Source of the DNA: a phage
Length of the DNA: 64,000 nucleotides
Sequence record: OZ413489.1
Direction: 5' to 3' (one strand)
The notes beneath the pieces were generated by a model. It saw nothing but the letters and a program-made list of their open reading frames with translations, did not search any database and was not told the origin of the DNA. The position numbers and the translations under genes were made by a program. Positions 11,354 to 64,000 of this stretch are shown here, in pieces (within the stretch, counting starts at the first letter, position 1; every line of letters begins with the position of its first letter).

Positions 11354-11773
11354 ATGATCTATGAAATGCCAAAATTGATCCGTGACGATGCCCAAAACCA
11401 CACCATTATTATGGGTAAACGCATGAATATCCTTTGCCGTAACGATTTCTGTGGTGGAGAATACGTTGCAGACTACTTCGGTGAGAATGGTAAACACCCT
11501 GTTCAGTTCTTCCTTGACCATGAGGATAACATTATCTGGGAGTTTGAAACTGAAGATATCCGCAACCTCTTCATCTTCCTCGGTGTCAAGGTTAAGGCCA
11601 ATTTCGCAGAAGGTGAGTGCGACGATTGTGGATTTTATGAGGTGACAGACTTTTATCTCCCGAGTGGCAAGAACCTTTACTATGAGAGTCACTTCGGAAA
11701 CACCAACATGCCTCAAAGCTGGGAAGAATTTTTCAGTATCGTAGAAGAGGAGCTGGCATACCGTGATTATTGA
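11354..11773 (+). CDS. hypothetical protein
   Basis: 139 aa ORF. Confidence 0.5.
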   Translation: MIYEMPKLIRDDAQNHTIIMGKRMNILCRNDFCGGEYVADYFGENGKHPVQFFLDHEDNIIWEFETEDIRNLFIFLGVKVKANFAEGECDDCGFYEVTDFYLPSGKNLYYESHFGNTNMPQSWEEFFSIVEEELAYRDY

Positions 11774-12221
11774 TACTGTAAAGGGAGATTTAATCTCCCT
11801 TTTTAAGAGCGGTGCTGGTCACCTGATCCACGGTTGTAACTGCTTCCACACAATGGGTAAAGGTATAGCAAAACAGATTGCCCGTGAGTTCCCTCAAGCA
11901 TTGGCAGCCGACAAAGAGACGAGACACGGTTGCCTAAGTAAACTGGGTGCGTTCTCCCGATGGGAGCACTTATCTCCGATAGGTATTGTCTACGGAATCA
12001 ATCTGTATACTCAGTTCTACCCAGGGCCTAATGCTGAATATTTCTCAATCCTGAAAGGCTTTGAGCTAGTCAATGAGGTATTCAAGGGATCGACTTTACC
12101 ATTCTACATCCCTAAGATCGGGTGCGGCATAGGCGGTTTGAAGTGGGAGCACGTAGAGGACGTTATTAACCTCGCCACTTTTGATATAGATATTATCGTG
12201 GTGGAGTACAAAGAGTGTTGA
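11763..12221 (+). CDS. putative macro-domain (ADP-ribose binding / processing) protein
   Basis: 152 aa; N-terminal GDLISLF...GAGHLIHGCNCFHTMGKGIAKQI resembles the macro-domain Gly-rich loop; from memory only. Confidence 0.4.
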   Translation: MIIDTVKGDLISLFKSGAGHLIHGCNCFHTMGKGIAKQIAREFPQALAADKETRHGCLSKLGAFSRWEHLSPIGIVYGINLYTQFYPGPNAEYFSILKGFELVNEVFKGSTLPFYIPKIGCGIGGLKWEHVEDVINLATFDIDIIVVEYKEC

Positions 12222-12274: not shown

Positions 12275-12475
12275 ATGGAGACTAAAATCTTAATTCTGGC
12301 TGTGATAGATACGACCGAAGGGGCCGTGTTCGAATCTGCAGGAGGGTATTTCTACCTGCCCTACGGAAAAAGAACTTCCGAACCGAGTAAAGATTCAATC
12401 CTTAAAGTGTTCCCTTGTGCTTTCTGGCTGGAGATTCTGGTAGAAGATTGCAGAGGATTGGGGAGAGAATTATGA
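12275..12475 (+). CDS. hypothetical protein
   Basis: 66 aa ORF with GAGGGAG RBS. Confidence 0.45.
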   Translation: METKILILAVIDTTEGAVFESAGGYFYLPYGKRTSEPSKDSILKVFPCAFWLEILVEDCRGLGREL

Positions 12476-12666
12476 GAAACAAGAAAGAGCTTTACTCTGG
12501 CGAGTGGATCAACGATCAACAGGTCGGAGAGGTAACCTGCTTCCGATGTTTTACCAGGTACAATCTTAAAACTGCACCAAAAAGTGTTCCAAAGACTGAT
12601 GGTTATTATATAAAAGAACCTCATTGCCCAAAATGTAAATGCCGATTGTACTGGAGCAATCTGTAA
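12472..12666 (+). CDS. small zinc-ribbon protein
   Basis: Track ORF 12415-12666 trimmed to ATG overlapping upstream stop; CxxC...CxxC. Confidence 0.4.
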   Translation: MRNKKELYSGEWINDQQVGEVTCFRCFTRYNLKTAPKSVPKTDGYYIKEPHCPKCKCRLYWSNL

Positions 12667-57416: not shown

Positions 57417-58115
57417 TTACAAGCTTTCAGTAAGAGCCTTTGCGTAACACGCTTCAGCAGACTCTTTGGTGTCAAACCTGCCTAACGTTTTTCCTCTGAA
57501 AGTTACTTTCCATTTGCCCCTGTCTGCTTCAAATCTGACACCTCTAGATTTATCCCTCCCTAAAGGCTGTCCACGATATTCCCTGACAAACGTGCCACTT
57601 TCAAAAGACTTTTGAGCAGCAATGGCCTCTTCTAAGGTATCGTATTCTCCTAAATCTTTCTTATAGTAATGACCTACCTTACCAAAAGCAGCATACCTTC
57701 CAGATCTAGCATGAAAATATACACCCAAATGTCCAGTATTGGATTTAGGTATCTTGCGTGCCAGGCATCCGTCATCTGCCGCCTTTTTTGCATTTTCTTC
57801 TGGTGTTAACAGTTGTAGGTTTTCTACCCTATCATCCGCAACACCATCGGAATAGAAAAGTGGCTTTATGTGATCAACTTCGTACCCTTCTGGGATTGGT
57901 CCATAGTGCATCTCCCACACCAATCTATGCCTGTAGTAATGCACGCCACAATAGACTATATCCCTGTACCCGTCCATGTTAGTACATCCAGCCTCCTTTC
58001 CCAGTAGTTGAGGTTTGTTTTTTGGCGGGGACTTCCAAAACAACCTTCCAGTTCCTGTATCGTATCTAAAGACACTCCACCAGTTAATCCCGTTACTCAT
58101 CTGTAACAACTCCAC
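57417..58115 (-). CDS. HNH homing endonuclease with AP2-like DNA-binding domain
   Basis: 232 aa; YRHRLVWEMHYGPIPEGYEVDHI; start overlaps the 3' end of the endolysin gene. Confidence 0.6.
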   Translation of the reverse strand: MELLQMSNGINWWSVFRYDTGTGRLFWKSPPKNKPQLLGKEAGCTNMDGYRDIVYCGVHYYRHRLVWEMHYGPIPEGYEVDHIKPLFYSDGVADDRVENLQLLTPEENAKKAADDGCLARKIPKSNTGHLGVYFHARSGRYAAFGKVGHYYKKDLGEYDTLEEAIAAQKSFESGTFVREYRGQPLGRDKSRGVRFEADRGKWKVTFRGKTLGRFDTKESAEACYAKALTESL

Positions 58116-58581
58116 CTGCCTTCTTAAAGATATCCAGCATCTTGTCTATACTTTCTGCTCGCTGATTGTACAGCTTTCCAGCTCCTGGCGGTGGTGGGAA
58201 GCTTGCCCAGCGGCTGCGGCATTTATAAATGGCCTGATGAATACGCCCTTCGTCAATGTCAGCGAGAGCCTTGCACTCACGGATCAGTTGCAACGCAATC
58301 TTGTCCTGACTGGCAGGGCCAAAATCTGGTAATCCTAACTGTTTCATGTAGTGTTTAGCAAACTTCTCCAAAACCTGGTAACGACCAGCAGCGGAGGAGG
58401 TAAGTTTAGCATTTAGCTTAACGTAAACACCTGGATGCTTGCTGTAATCGCTGAACAGCTTGCCGCCGACTATGACATCGTACCCCCGATCCTTGGTAGG
58501 TTGTCTACCATTATCTGTTCCTTCCGAATATGCGATCATATCCAAGAAAGCTTTTCGTTGAACATTTTTATCAAGTTTCAT
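58093..58581 (-). CDS. endolysin, lambda R-type lytic transglycosylase
   Basis: 162 aa; near-colinear with lambda R (QRKAFLDMIAYSEGTDNGRQ...GYDVIVGG...AAGRYQ). Confidence 0.85.
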   Translation of the reverse strand: MKLDKNVQRKAFLDMIAYSEGTDNGRQPTKDRGYDVIVGGKLFSDYSKHPGVYVKLNAKLTSSAAGRYQVLEKFAKHYMKQLGLPDFGPASQDKIALQLIRECKALADIDEGRIHQAIYKCRSRWASFPPPPGAGKLYNQRAESIDKMLDIFKKAGGVVTDE

Positions 58582-60583: not shown

Positions 60584-60616
60584 AACAAGTAAAGCCGGGT
60601 AATCCCGGCTATGTTG

Positions 60617-61330
60617 TTAAATATACTCTGTTACATCCTTGAAGCTCGAAGGCTTCATGATCTTACCTTTACTGTCAAGGAATATGATAACTTTATTACC
60701 GTTGTAGAATTCTTCCTTAGCAACAAAACCTTCATATCGACCATCAAAGCGTCGTTCAAGATCTTTAATCTCCAACTCGATGAGTTGTTCAGCAGGCATA
60801 TCTGCACTGGCACCGTGTGAATACCGTAGATGGTTGACCCGTGCAAACTTGCTGTCATTCGATTTGAGAACCTTACGCATCATCCCGCACACATCGCCGC
60901 GAAGCTGGAACAGCAAAGCTGTTGACAACTCTGCTAAGCGGTAAGCGGATGCTCTTTGCTTAGAGGTGTTTTTCGCAGCGATCAGTGTATCATAGAACTC
61001 ACCGATCTTGAACTTAAGACCTCGTGGATTATCAAACAGGTTTGACCACTTTTCGTGATTGTCATTAACAAGATAAGCGGCATAACTTGTGACAACGTGA
61101 AGATCGCAGGCCTCTTTTAGCAGGTGATCTCCACCATCCCCTTTCTCCAGCTCTTCCAAAACTTCATTGAACTCTTCCTCAATGAAGCTAAGCTGTAATT
61201 CGAACGGTATGTATGATTTTTTCACTTTAGCTGCCACACGGTTCCAGTTTTCCACCCAGTTGGCAGACCAAAGGTAGTTTTCAGGTTGGGACAGTTTTTC
61301 CAGGTTGTCAATTAATTTGGTATTCAGCAT
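60617..61330 (-). CDS. MazG-like nucleotide pyrophosphohydrolase (putative)
   Basis: 237 aa; acidic helix IEEEFNEVLEELEK...KEACDLHV. Confidence 0.45.
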   Translation of the reverse strand: MLNTKLIDNLEKLSQPENYLWSANWVENWNRVAAKVKKSYIPFELQLSFIEEEFNEVLEELEKGDGGDHLLKEACDLHVVTSYAAYLVNDNHEKWSNLFDNPRGLKFKIGEFYDTLIAAKNTSKQRASAYRLAELSTALLFQLRGDVCGMMRKVLKSNDSKFARVNHLRYSHGASADMPAEQLIELEIKDLERRFDGRYEGFVAKEEFYNGNKVIIFLDSKGKIMKPSSFKDVTEYI

Positions 61331-61343
61331 TAAAGGTCTCCTT

Positions 61344-62105
61344 TTAAAGTTCCATAAAGTTTTCTACGGTCTCAATGAATGTTTTATCAGAGAAGGCATC
61401 AACCGCACCGTTAAACCAAACTGGGATGCCGCGATCCTCATACTGGTAAATATCACTACGTGAAATGCCATTCTCCTCTAGATGCTGTGAGTCGTATTTA
61501 TTAACGATCAGTAGTTTGGTTCCCTTATTGCAGGCAGGGAATAGCTCCCAGTTAAAATTGATAACTGTGTTGGAACACCCTACAAGGATAACCATATCAT
61601 TGCTTGTAAGAGAAGTCAACAGGTCATACATGTCTGTATACTTCGGAGCTACTTCTCCGAAGAACACCACATTAGGTTTAACCCAGGTATACTTTCCTGC
61701 ATCTACCTCAGAGTATCCAATGTCCTTAATGACGTCACTTCCTTCATCGTCCTCATAGACTATTTCTGGCAAATACCCGTGAACATGTAAAATATCTTCA
61801 TGTTTTACACCAGCACGCTCCAGCAAATCATCTACATTGGTGGTAAGGTTGATCACACGACCAGACCAGCGGGAATACCACTCAGCGATCCGAAGATGTG
61901 CAAGGTTAGGCTCAACACCGCCTAGAGCTACACGACGTGCATTGTAAAAGTCATGCACCTTGTAGTAGTTCTTGGCAAAGGTGTGGATGTTGCACACCTC
62001 ATCGATGCTGAAATTCTCCCACATTGCAGTGCTACCAGATCGGAAAGTGGGAATACCAGATTCAGCGCTCAAACCAGCACCGGAGATAATAATCAGTCGT
62101 CGCAT
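61344..62105 (-). CDS. Sir2-family NAD-dependent deacylase / ADP-ribosyltransferase-like protein
   Basis: 253 aa; GAGLSAESGIPTFRS, TTNVDDL, VHGY, VVFFGE, ILVGCS; no obvious zinc ribbon. Confidence 0.7.
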   Translation of the reverse strand: MRRLIIISGAGLSAESGIPTFRSGSTAMWENFSIDEVCNIHTFAKNYYKVHDFYNARRVALGGVEPNLAHLRIAEWYSRWSGRVINLTTNVDDLLERAGVKHEDILHVHGYLPEIVYEDDEGSDVIKDIGYSEVDAGKYTWVKPNVVFFGEVAPKYTDMYDLLTSLTSNDMVILVGCSNTVINFNWELFPACNKGTKLLIVNKYDSQHLEENGISRSDIYQYEDRGIPVWFNGAVDAFSDKTFIETVENFMEL

Positions 62106-62113
62106 AAGTGTCC

Positions 62114-62464
62114 TCAGTAGATGTTTTGTTTAATCTCTATTCCAAACTTTTTAAACGAGTCAGCTGCAAGCATGAATTTACGAGCCGCTGATGGGTTAGA
62201 AGTATGCACGAAAATCTTCACGTTGTCAACTACAGGGGGCTTACCAAATACAAATTTTTCCTCCAACATAGATAGGCAATCGTACCCTTCGAACACCTCT
62301 CCAAGGTCGTTGTCCATGTGCCACTCAGAAACGCGTCTGTAGAGCTTTCCCCTATCGTTAATAAAATCTATAAACTCGGAGGAATTCTTTAGCCAAATAG
62401 CGTCTGGGAGCCCATAATTTGACGGATCTCTCAAGTCATCCAGCCACACAATCAACTTCTTCAT
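62114..62464 (-). CDS. hypothetical protein
   Basis: 116 aa ORF adjacent to the Sir2-like gene. Confidence 0.45.
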   Translation of the reverse strand: MKKLIVWLDDLRDPSNYGLPDAIWLKNSSEFIDFINDRGKLYRRVSEWHMDNDLGEVFEGYDCLSMLEEKFVFGKPPVVDNVKIFVHTSNPSAARKFMLAADSFKKFGIEIKQNIY

Positions 62465-63396
62465 TGCATATAGTTCTCGTTGTGGAAATAGTAATCAAGT
62501 ATCTCACGGCGTTCCTGCTCCAGGAGGCAGTTCCACACATCTTCTGTGTAATTGTTACGAATGAAGTTTACCATGCCGTAAAACTCTTCGTCAACACGTT
62601 TAAAGATATCATCATCCCAAATCCTCCAAGCTTTACCCCTCATTACGGCCTTCCGTGCCAGGTAGTATGGAGACTTGATCTTCAGCTGCAGGTCATAAGG
62701 GTAGTAAGGCTTACGGATCATATACCCTTCGCCCCTTGTTTCTGCGGCTAATTCTTTTGCATAGCTGAACGGGATTTCACGCACAGTGTGAGGACGTTTT
62801 GCACCAAGGTATTTGGCAATCCCATCTAAAGCTGCTTCTGGTAGCATTATTCCAGAATCATTATATCTGCAACCTATCAAATATGCGCCATGGTCTTCTT
62901 GAACAATATGCGGATCTGAAGGGTGACAAATTTCAAACATGAATGTCATGTTTTCATTGCCCATAACCTTCTTGATAAGATCTAAATTACCACATTGCTC
63001 TTGGATGGTTTCCTTTGCAAGGTTACAATATGGAGAATCAAGAGACCCGGTTGTTGAGAACAATAGGTCACCTTTATGAGATGATACCACACCAAGGAAT
63101 CCGTTCTTTTTCTCTACCGCAGTCACAAGCTTATTGTCAGGCAGGTTGGTGGAGTTTTCTCCCAAGTTAAACACTTTTGTGAAGGGCCATGCCACAACAT
63201 TTCCTTCATTACCTACAACAATGCCTCGACACTCCAGTAAACGAGGGGACAAATGCCATAAATTGTTGTAAAATACTTTTCTAGCATATTTATAGATCTT
63301 TAACCCAAGATCCGGGTAATATCTACTGGTTACAAGACCTTTGTCAACTAGGTCGTCTGCATTAAAATACTTCATCATACGTTCCTCATTTGTCAT
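62461..63396 (-). CDS. RNA ligase-like nucleotidyltransferase (putative)
   Basis: 311 aa; candidate motif I EKKNGF plus EGYMIRKP and LKIKSP; from memory only. Confidence 0.45.
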   Translation of the reverse strand: MTNEERMMKYFNADDLVDKGLVTSRYYPDLGLKIYKYARKVFYNNLWHLSPRLLECRGIVVGNEGNVVAWPFTKVFNLGENSTNLPDNKLVTAVEKKNGFLGVVSSHKGDLLFSTTGSLDSPYCNLAKETIQEQCGNLDLIKKVMGNENMTFMFEICHPSDPHIVQEDHGAYLIGCRYNDSGIMLPEAALDGIAKYLGAKRPHTVREIPFSYAKELAAETRGEGYMIRKPYYPYDLQLKIKSPYYLARKAVMRGKAWRIWDDDIFKRVDEEFYGMVNFIRNNYTEDVWNCLLEQERREILDYYFHNENYMQ

Positions 63397-63439
63397 TTTG
63401 TCAGTCTATCCTGCCACACAAATAACCTAGTGTCAACAC

Positions 63440-63468
63440 TTGAAATTAACAAAACAGTTAGGTATACT
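63440..63468 (+). promoter_or_regulatory. sigma70-type promoter (TTGAAA-17-TATACT) in divergent region
   Basis: Between the leftward ligase-like gene and the rightward kinase gene. Confidence 0.5.
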
Positions 63469-63496
63469 ATCGTTGAAATTAAAACGGAGTATTACT

Positions 63497-63907
63497 ATGT
63501 CTAAAATGCTATATATCGTGCGTGGTCTACCAGGGTCTGGCAAATCAACACTGGCAAATGCGCTATCTTTAGAAGGTCTGTATCCACATTTTGAGAACGA
63601 CATGTTCTGGTACGACGATGATGGAAATTACAACTGGGATGCAAGTAAAGTAACACTTGCAGCAAAATGGTGCAAAGATAACGTAGAAGATATGATGCGT
63701 ATGGGATACGACCGTATCGTGGTAAGTAATACGTTTACAAAAGAAAAATATGTGCAAGAATATATTGACATGGCGATCAGTCATGGGTATAGTTATACCG
63801 TGATCGTGGTTGAAAACCGCCATGGTAATAAAAGCATTCATGATGTTCCAGACAGGGTTGTGGATCGTATGGAACGCCAGCTTAAAAACTGCATTAAACT
63901 TAAATGA
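63497..63907 (+). CDS. P-loop kinase, polynucleotide-kinase-like
   Basis: Track ORF 63440 (TTG) trimmed to ATG after GGAG RBS; Walker A GLPGSGKST. Confidence 0.55.
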   Translation: MSKMLYIVRGLPGSGKSTLANALSLEGLYPHFENDMFWYDDDGNYNWDASKVTLAAKWCKDNVEDMMRMGYDRIVVSNTFTKEKYVQEYIDMAISHGYSYTVIVVENRHGNKSIHDVPDRVVDRMERQLKNCIKLK

Positions 63908-63915
63908 GGAATGTA

Positions 63916-64000
63916 TGAAATACTTTGTAACAAGCGACACACACTTTCTCCACCAGCGGGTCATGGAGTTCGATTCATGTCAAAAACACAGATCTCAGTA
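63916..64000 (+). CDS. calcineurin-like metallophosphoesterase (partial, runs off window)
   Basis: N-terminus MKYFVTSDTHFLHQ resembles phosphoesterase motif I. Confidence 0.4.

Follow-up and report, generated by a model that had tools for sequence, protein, structure and literature searches.

Known RNA repair systems and the sirtuin cassette

The systems that come closest in their logic to the locus considered here are the repair of PrrC-cleaved tRNA by the polynucleotide kinase-phosphatase (PNKP) and Rnl1 of phage T4 and the tRNA splicing of the Tpt1/KptA and Trl1 type in yeast and plants, the likeness being one of proposed logic, by analogy. Closest in gene content is the type 2 sirtuin neighbourhood described by Iyer, Burroughs, Anantharaman & Aravind in 2022 (Viruses 14:1977, PMC9503650), whose prototypes are Escherichia phage V5 and Proteus phage Mydo. 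These authors predicted that a distinct sirtuin clade acts in the manner of KptA/Tpt1, removing 2'-phosphates derived from 2',3'-cyclic phosphates on cleaved RNA; they listed MazG as a component of the sirtuin neighbourhood and explicitly noted that the sirtuins of this clade are not macro-linked.

We analysed a stretch of phage DNA of 64,000 nucleotides (sequence record OZ413489.1, hereafter the window) that carries a Sir2 gene at 61344-62105 within a six-gene cluster. The original prediction for this DNA had placed the Sir2 gene, a MazG-like neighbour and a remote macrodomain gene in a module of NAD and ADP-ribose metabolism. Of this proposal, the NAD-utilising Sir2 beside a MazG-superfamily gene and a macrodomain elsewhere were recovered; the macro gene proved to be separate, and the partners of Sir2 are predicted RNA-end repair enzymes, so that NAD-dependent RNA repair, the reading already in print (PMC9503650), suits the module better. 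The best explanation of the locus, which we favour tentatively and with somewhat less than even confidence, is that published NAD-dependent RNA-repair model, applied to the accessory cassette of an rV5-like phage. All six components of the type 2 neighbourhood (sirtuin, T4-like RNA ligase, cREC, nucleotide kinase, MazG-superfamily pyrophosphatase and calcineurin-like phosphoesterase) were found within 60617-64000 and just past the window end, and the content is the same as in the published description. Added here are the clade-wide loss of the zinc cysteines, the TTNVD motif, the invariant YxxR pair, a dimeric-dUTPase-like predicted fold of the MazG-like protein, a hairpin at the end of the minus-strand gene run, and non-essentiality by transposon sequencing.

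Over the 4 kb around the locus, more than 100 rV5-like coliphages (Vequintavirus) shared 97-98% identity with the window, among them PMBT16 and the BASEL phages Bas49-59, and by this nucleotide identity the phage of the window is an rV5-like Vequintavirus. In those records the Sir2 gene is labelled "NAD-dependent protein deacetylase of SIR2 family" or "sirtuin domain NAD-dependent deacetylase". The open reading frames (ORFs) at the locus match those described in the original prediction, and the features are as follows.

62461-63396, minus strand: Rnl1-type RNA ligase, 311 aa (Pfam, PHROG, sequence reading)
62114-62464, minus strand: cyclic-phosphate-processing receiver (cREC) domain protein, 116 aa (Pfam PF20274)
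61344-62105, minus strand: Sir2/sirtuin, 253 aa, derived from class III (CobB/SIRT5-like), without zinc-binding cysteines (Pfam, PDB, AlphaFold2/Foldseek)
60617-61330, minus strand: predicted all-alpha NTP pyrophosphatase (MazG/HisE/dimeric-dUTPase superfamily), 237 aa (family profile and predicted structure)
60593-60610, minus strand: GC-rich hairpin directly after the MazG-like stop codon (7-bp stem, 6 GC pairs)
63397-63496, no strand assigned: divergent intergenic region between the ligase operon (minus strand) and the kinase/phosphoesterase pair (plus strand) (sigma-70-like hexamer matches)
63497-63907, plus strand: P-loop polynucleotide-kinase-like kinase, 136 aa (Pfam AAA_33, PHROG 2071/505)
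63915-64000, plus strand: calcineurin-like (Metallophos) phosphoesterase, 5' end only, the window ending inside the gene (translation and Bas51 ortholog)
11763-12221, plus strand: stand-alone macrodomain, 152 aa, TARG1/DarG/Poa1p class, outside the Sir2 cluster (Pfam Macro, DarG models, T4 Tk.4 homology)

Along the minus strand, the ligase, cREC, Sir2 and MazG-like genes follow one another at distances of -4, 8 and 13 nt, the start of cREC overlapping the stop of the ligase. The hairpin at 60593-60610 (-17.6 kcal/mol, z = -4.2; none of 200 shuffles was as stable) is the only strong hairpin of the region, and its U-tract is weak. Packing in the cluster is operon-like, with overlaps of 4 nt and 1 nt and gaps of 8-33 nt. 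The tight packing of the four genes together with this hairpin suggests a single transcription unit, whose 3' end would probably lie at the hairpin if termination occurs there. The sigma-70-like hexamers of the divergent region at 63397-63496 are consensus matches only and no proof of promoters.

A predicted sirtuin with an altered small domain

The Sir2 motifs that the original prediction had read at 61344-62105 were borne out by profile search: the protein matched Pfam SIR2 (PF02146) with 95.3 bits (cutoff 24) and PHROG 2162 with an E-value of 3e-109, and its catalytic motifs are intact. Among PDB sequences, that of E. coli CobB matched best (4e-21), with SIRT5 and Sir2Af next, and the AlphaFold2 (AF2) model (predicted local distance difference test, pLDDT, 89.7) had CobB as its best Foldseek match (E=1.5e-18, template modelling scores 0.75/0.83), followed by Sir2Af1 and SIRT5. 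Defence-type SIR2 (PF13289 SIR2_2; ThsA/DSR/SIR2-HerA) was not matched (E=0.16, under the cutoff), and PADLOC made no defence-type SIR2 or other defence assignment in the cluster, returning only a weak partial match to PDC-S65 (E=0.011). Judged by its modelled structure, the protein is a genuine sirtuin with the canonical class III deacylase fold and not a defence-type SIR2. It missed the CobB equivalog cutoffs of NCBIfam, reaching 102.7 against 320 bits for NF040867 and 122.4 against 243 bits for NF001753.

In an alignment of the window protein with 120 phage-clade homologs, S16, F21, R22, Y54, R57, N90, D92, H109 and G110 were invariant in all 121 sequences, and of the GAGxS motif G9/A10/G11 were kept in 120 and S13 in 119. 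Common to the phage protein and CobB/SIRT5 are the Rossmann fold with GAGxS, the FR motif, the N and D of QNID, the catalytic His-Gly and the Tyr-x-x-Arg acyl-carboxylate pocket of class III sirtuins; Y54/R57 of this pocket align with FYNARR of CobB and, to judge from the construct offset, would be equivalent to CobB Y92/R95. The phage sirtuin differs from CobB/SIRT5 in that the canonical TQNID motif reads TTNVD in all 121 clade members, the Gln always being replaced by Thr, in that the substrate-loop motif is altered from GTSxxVxP to GCSNxVIN, and in that the zinc cysteines are missing. The insert between HG and FGE (111-148) contains no Cys in the window protein, whereas CobB has four. Across the clade it holds none in 70 sequences and one in 49, so the observation that no zinc ribbon was evident was correct and extends to the clade as a whole (119 of 121 sequences with zero or one Cys). 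The three-stranded sheet of the small domain is still predicted in the model (strands 110-118, 124-128 and 142-146). The zinc site of sirtuins is typical but structural, not catalytic, and because of this the protein is filed as a sirtuin without it. The clade-wide loss of the zinc ribbon and the change from TQNID to TTNVD argue for a substrate-binding small domain that is probably altered, with catalysis preserved. The genomic context also differs, being predicted RNA repair for the phage sirtuin and acetyl-CoA synthetase-type metabolism for CobB.

Candidate RNA-end repair enzymes beside the sirtuin gene

The 116 aa gene next to Sir2, listed as unknown in the original prediction, is real and can be named: its product matched the cREC family (Pfam PF20274; 1.3e-14, 55.1 bits, cutoff 27), which conserves D9/D10, D51-x-D53-L-G, H87-T-S-N-P and K96, a receiver-type acidic active site. 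Cyclic-phosphate hydrolysis by cREC is a published prediction only. The upstream gene codes for a T4 RnlA-like RNA ligase (Pfam RNA_lig_T4_1, 55 bits, cutoff 28; PHROG 562, 2.7e-66) whose KxNG adenylylation motif reads EKKNG. Sequence searches of the ligase and cREC against the PDB gave chance-level matches only, with which a T4 Rnl1-like ligase and a Trl1-like ligase requiring a 2'-phosphate are not separable.

On the opposite strand, the kinase matched Pfam AAA_33 (2.7e-10) and PHROG 2071 and 505 (polynucleotide kinase) and consists of the kinase domain only, without a phosphatase domain. The ORF program placed its start at a TTG (63440; 63440-63907, plus strand, 155 aa); the ATG at 63497 (136 aa, MSKMLYIVRGLPGSGKST) is the more plausible start because it is preceded by a GGAG Shine-Dalgarno sequence and agrees with the annotation in relatives. 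Of the phosphoesterase, the first 28 codons (MKYFVTSDTHFLH...) lie in the window; its full-length ortholog in Bas51 matched Metallophos and Metallophos_2, and relatives annotate a phosphoesterase. Relative to T4 PNKP, the putative phosphatase of this phage is of the Metallophos rather than the HAD type, and the activities are encoded by separate genes instead of being fused. The conserved partners of Sir2, overlooked in the original prediction, are thus by their domain assignments RNA-end repair enzymes, namely a ligase, cREC, a PNK-like kinase and a Metallophos enzyme.

Sirtuin neighbourhoods in diverged phages

The gene contexts of seven diverged clade members (49-59% identical) were compared with that of the window, using profile searches to catch unlabelled genes. 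Beside the order found in the window, the arrangements were:

L004 (Mydo-like): Metallophos, then at some remove Rnl, cREC, kinase, one other ORF, Sir2, DNA ligase, three ORFs and MazG-like
L013: Metallophos, Rnl, kinase, four ORFs, Sir2, Toprim, methylase, DNA ligase, one other ORF and MazG-like; no cREC
L012: Sir2, DNA ligase, one other ORF and a canonical short MazG (PF03819)
L005 and L011 (T5-like): HAD_SAK_2 phosphatase, one other ORF and Sir2
L007: Metallophos 1.4 kb upstream and HAD_PNKP 4 kb downstream of Sir2
L006: a Metallophos gene only, about 6 kb from Sir2

In seven of the eight contexts, an RNA-end-healing enzyme (Metallophos, HAD_SAK_2, HAD_PNKP or kinase) was encoded within about 6 kb of Sir2. 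What speaks most strongly for a functional link is that the sirtuin clade is associated with predicted RNA-end processing by way of different enzyme families. A MazG-superfamily gene was found in four contexts and was absent from the other four, and the adjacency of Sir2 and MazG seen in the window is lineage-specific. A tight functional pair of Sir2 and MazG was accordingly downgraded as a candidate, the MazG-like gene being absent from half of the contexts and elsewhere lying beyond the DNA ligase gene.

Other genes were seen near these sirtuin loci. In Mydo-like relatives, genes for NARP2-like NAD salvage (NAPRTase and PRPP synthetase) lie about 5 kb away from the Sir2 cluster, and NADAR is encoded about 6 kb downstream (L004 1-1133 and 12214-12720; L012 1-2498); genes of these kinds are not annotated in the examined parts of the rV5-like PMBT16. 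In the phi92-like context a protein of the Acb2/Tad1-hairpin family (the anti-CBASS/anti-Thoeris sponge family) is encoded about 4 kb upstream of Sir2 (L006 1940-2215).

The MazG-like protein and a possible role in nucleotide house-cleaning

The MazG-like assignment was the weakest part of the original prediction, yet it survives. Searched alone, the protein encoded at 60617-61330 had no match in Pfam (E<=1), NCBIfam or PDB sequence searches, so that a direct match to Pfam MazG or PRA-PH is absent, and PHROG 671 ("nucleotide pyrophosphohydrolase") was its only direct match. The assignment stood at the superfamily level, by family profile and predicted structure. An exhaustive profile search collected 165 relatives, and among 84 aligned family members 57 matched Pfam PRA-PH (HisE) and 19 matched MazG. 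The family profile aligned its EExxE...D helices to solved HisE (E=0.005) and to E. coli MazG (E=0.009); E53, D76, N158, K161, K223 and K226 are invariant in the family, and the motifs comprise the metal-binding signature EEExxE...ExxD, SNDSKF and KGKIMKP. Profile homology, metal-binding motif and a predicted helical-bundle fold thus all point to the MazG/all-alpha NTP pyrophosphatase superfamily. The best structural matches were dimeric dUTPases, although Pfam dUTPase_2 was not matched by any member of the family at a threshold of E<=0.01. According to the predicted structure, "MazG-like" is right at the superfamily level and the closest fold is that of the dimeric-dUTPase branch. Compared with dimeric dUTPases (phage 5myd, C. 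jejuni 1w2y and L. major 2yay) and with MazG/HisE, the window protein adds a C-terminal beta-hairpin and the invariant KGKIMKP motif.

This protein is labelled "putative Sir2-like protein" (twice) in the phages inoa, ime, nomo and nom, and the BFVD entry A0A7H0XDZ2 (vb_EcoM_bov22_2), a MazG-like protein, carries the same Sir2-like label; this looks like a misannotation carried over from the neighbouring gene. At L012 7699-8061, the position after Sir2 and DNA ligase, filled in other lineages by the 237 aa dimeric-dUTPase-like protein, is taken by a canonical MazG of 120 aa (PF03819), perhaps as a non-orthologous replacement by another member of the superfamily.

These results bear on a first alternative, which concerns the MazG-like protein and to which we give a chance approaching, and still below, an even one: the protein would be a house-cleaning dNTP pyrophosphatase (a dUTPase or dCTPase, supplying dUMP for thymidylate synthase and keeping uracil out of DNA), grouped with DNA ligase and nucleotide metabolism and not with Sir2. 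Its fold is closest to the dimeric dUTPases, and its gene tracks DNA ligase as much as Sir2. PMBT16 encodes ThyA and two ribonucleotide reductases (aerobic and anaerobic), and no trimeric dUTPase was found in about 99% of its genome (L008-L010), a weak negative since the probe was one E. coli Dut sequence, with which a divergent dUTPase could be missed. However, the family members match PRA-PH and MazG instead of dUTPase_2, the gene is co-oriented with Sir2, begins 13 nt downstream of it and is followed by the only strong hairpin, and MazG is listed within the sirtuin neighbourhood by PMC9503650.

A possible route for NAD-dependent RNA repair

In the RNA-repair model that we favour, host anticodon nucleases or other metal-independent RNases would cut tRNA or other RNA, leaving 2',3'-cyclic phosphate and 5'-OH ends. 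The cREC protein, the Metallophos enzyme or both would open the cyclic phosphate, the kinase would phosphorylate the 5'-OH and the Rnl1-type ligase would seal the break. The sirtuin, as an analogue of Tpt1/KptA, would then use NAD+ to remove the residual 2'-phosphate by ADP-ribosyl transfer, giving nicotinamide and ADP-ribose-1'',2''-cyclic phosphate. In the weakest step, the pyrophosphatase may degrade the ADP-ribose by-product, in place of the Nudix enzyme of other sirtuin neighbourhoods. The kinase and the Rnl1-family ligase of the window are homologous to the T4 and Trl1 modules, whereas the likeness to the Tpt1 system is by analogy only: the NAD-using enzyme of the phage is a sirtuin, whose fold is unrelated to the ADP-ribosyltransferase (ART) fold of Tpt1, and no Tpt1/KptA model of Pfam or NCBIfam was matched by any protein of the cluster.

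In SIRT5 and CobB, the Tyr-x-x-Arg pair binds the carboxylate of the succinyl or acyl group. The invariant Tyr54/Arg57 pair of the phage clade would suit a phosphate, and the zinc-less small domain and altered substrate loops would be consistent with a non-peptide substrate. It is possible, if doubtful, that the sirtuin is an NAD-dependent RNA 2'-phosphotransferase and not a deacylase, with the Tyr/Arg pocket serving the RNA phosphate and with cREC and the MazG-like protein processing the ADP-ribose cyclic-phosphate by-product.

Several points weigh against the RNA-repair model. The nearest relatives of the sirtuin in sequence and fold (CobB, SIRT5 and Sir2Af) are true protein lysine deacylases, and none of the features required of a deacylase is lost from it, His109 and the YxxR acyl pocket included. 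The kinase, the Metallophos enzyme and the ligase already suffice as a heal-and-seal set, with no need of a 2'-phosphotransferase. The eight contexts come from related phages, sampled for convenience and not phylogenetically independent, and synteny by descent inflates their signal; cREC accompanied Sir2 in only two of them and the Rnl1 ligase in three, L012 had no RNA-repair gene within 5 kb of Sir2, and the MazG-like gene follows DNA ligase as much as Sir2, lying elsewhere beyond the DNA ligase. In the literature on phage or viral sirtuins and on sirtuins as Tpt1 analogues, we found only the 2022 comparative-genomics paper and no experimental test.

The second alternative, and the main rival, draws on several of these points: the sirtuin would be a CobB-like NAD-dependent protein lysine deacylase (deacetylase or desuccinylase) acting on host or phage proteins, and its RNA-repair neighbours would be inherited synteny. 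We regard this as a possibility to be held with considerable doubt. Beside the close matches to CobB, SIRT5 and Sir2Af and the invariance of all catalytic residues and of the SIRT5/CobB-type YxxR pocket, the best NCBIfam matches of the sirtuin are all protein deacylase models, and more than 100 GenBank records annotate it so. The protein is, however, far under every CobB equivalog cutoff (122 against 243 bits), the whole clade has lost the zinc ribbon, which has a part in forming the peptide cleft, and shows altered substrate-loop motifs. Moreover, diverged lineages repeatedly have RNA-end enzymes beside the sirtuin, drawn from different families (HAD_SAK_2 in T5-like phages; Metallophos, Rnl and kinase in rV5- and Mydo-like phages), a pattern that is harder to obtain by descent alone.

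The macrodomain gene and the counter-defence proposal

The macro-domain-like protein that the original prediction had named at 11763-12221 was recovered with Pfam Macro (28.3 bits, cutoff 22) and proved DarG-like in NCBIfam (5.9e-13), PADLOC (9.5e-14) and the PDB (DarG macrodomain 5m3i, 4.5e-7). It is homologous over its full length to Tk.4 (AdfM) of phage T4 (39% identity, E=5e-41). With tblastn, homologs were found in 2,794 phage records, with 69% identity to "tk.4" of RB49 and about 40-45% identity to a gene beside the valyl-tRNA-synthetase modifier in T-even phages. T4 tk.4, renamed adfM (anti-DarT factor Macrodomain), is required for growth on DarTG2 hosts (preprint 10.1101/2025.11.20.689424). 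By analogy with T4 AdfM, the protein is most likely a stand-alone DNA ADP-ribosyl-glycohydrolase that counters DarTG2; the anti-DarTG2 function has been shown genetically for T4 only, not for any Vequintavirus. A distance of 49 kb separates the gene from Sir2, which is encoded on the other strand. Its neighbours are a long series of small genes that follow the DNA polymerase gene, whereas T4 tk.4 lies beside tk/vs; the macro gene belongs to a transcription unit separate from that of Sir2 and is not a member of the Sir2 module. A Poa1p-like role of the macro protein in the last step of a Tpt1-type pathway, the hydrolysis of ADP-ribose-1''-phosphate, was set aside as less likely in view of this distance, the separate transcription unit, the AdfM homology and the note in PMC9503650 that the sirtuins of this clade are not macro-linked. 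About 200 nt downstream of the macro gene, an ORF of 83 aa (12415-12666, plus strand) matched the Pfam "Phage zinc binding domain" (PF23903, 1.6e-22).

The third alternative is the one put forward originally, a counter-defence module of NAD/ADP-ribose metabolism made up of Sir2, the MazG-like protein and the macro protein, which would act against NAD-depleting or alarmone-dependent abortive infection or would ADP-ribosylate host proteins. There is a precedent for the alarmone idea in the phage MazG-like protein Atd1, a (p)ppGpp-depleting enzyme that gives protection from TIR-STING and retron-TIR (preprint 10.1101/2022.06.09.495361), some sirtuins act as ADP-ribosyltransferases (PMC9503650), and the genes are non-essential in the laboratory, as is usual for anti-defence genes. 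The proposal is nevertheless very improbable, as the sirtuin consumes NAD and does not restore it, known NAD-reconstitution pathways use other enzymes, no NAD-rebuilding gene (NARP1-3 types) is annotated in the examined parts of the 98%-identical PMBT16 genome, the macro gene is remote and its family is reported to target DarTG2, the window protein belongs to the dimeric-dUTPase/PRA-PH-like branch and not, as Atd1 does, to the canonical MazG proteins with twin motifs, and no PADLOC or defence-type SIR2 signature was found; its NAD-depletion part is left unsupported. A link of Sir2 and MazG to NARP3 was also rejected, the published NARP3 system consisting of NadR and PnuC and being unrelated.

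Outside the cluster, a homing endonuclease ORF of 232 aa (HNH_3 and AP2-like; 57417-58115, minus strand) overlaps the end of the endolysin gene (58093-58581). The homing endonuclease of this neighbourhood in Bas51 has only 148 aa and is placed differently; mobile-endonuclease content therefore varies between close relatives.

Dispensability and significance of the cassette

The orthologs of the six genes in the Vequintavirinae phage Bas54 are bas54_0206 to bas54_0211 and were covered by HIDEN-SEQ (preprint 10.1101/2025.11.20.689424, supplement). Five of them were non-essential, with insertions at 35 of 40 sites in the MazG-like gene, 48 of 51 in the sirtuin gene, 56 of 60 in the RNA ligase gene, 33 of 36 in the kinase gene and 26 of 27 in the phosphoesterase gene; cREC was scored "intermediate" (16 of 21 sites hit). 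On E. coli K-12 in rich medium the phage can thus do without most of the cassette, which fits conditional counter-defence or repair and does not discriminate between the models.

The feature is real, conserved and ordinary for rV5-like phages, and it has already been annotated and analysed, with the V5 group as prototype. As its genes are annotated in more than 100 rV5-like genomes, its neighbourhood and a predicted mechanism were published in 2022 and an anti-DarTG2 role of the macro family in 2025, it carries little weight as a discovery. A dispensable six-gene cassette in tractable E. coli phages (BASEL Bas49-59) is nonetheless a well-defined experimental target, which could show whether the sirtuin acts on RNA, what cREC does and which RNA-cleaving host defences the phages evade. 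Were the sirtuin an RNA 2'-phosphotransferase, it would be the first sirtuin with a nucleic-acid phosphate as substrate; the idea is in print (Iyer et al. 2022), and it is the experimental proof that would be new.

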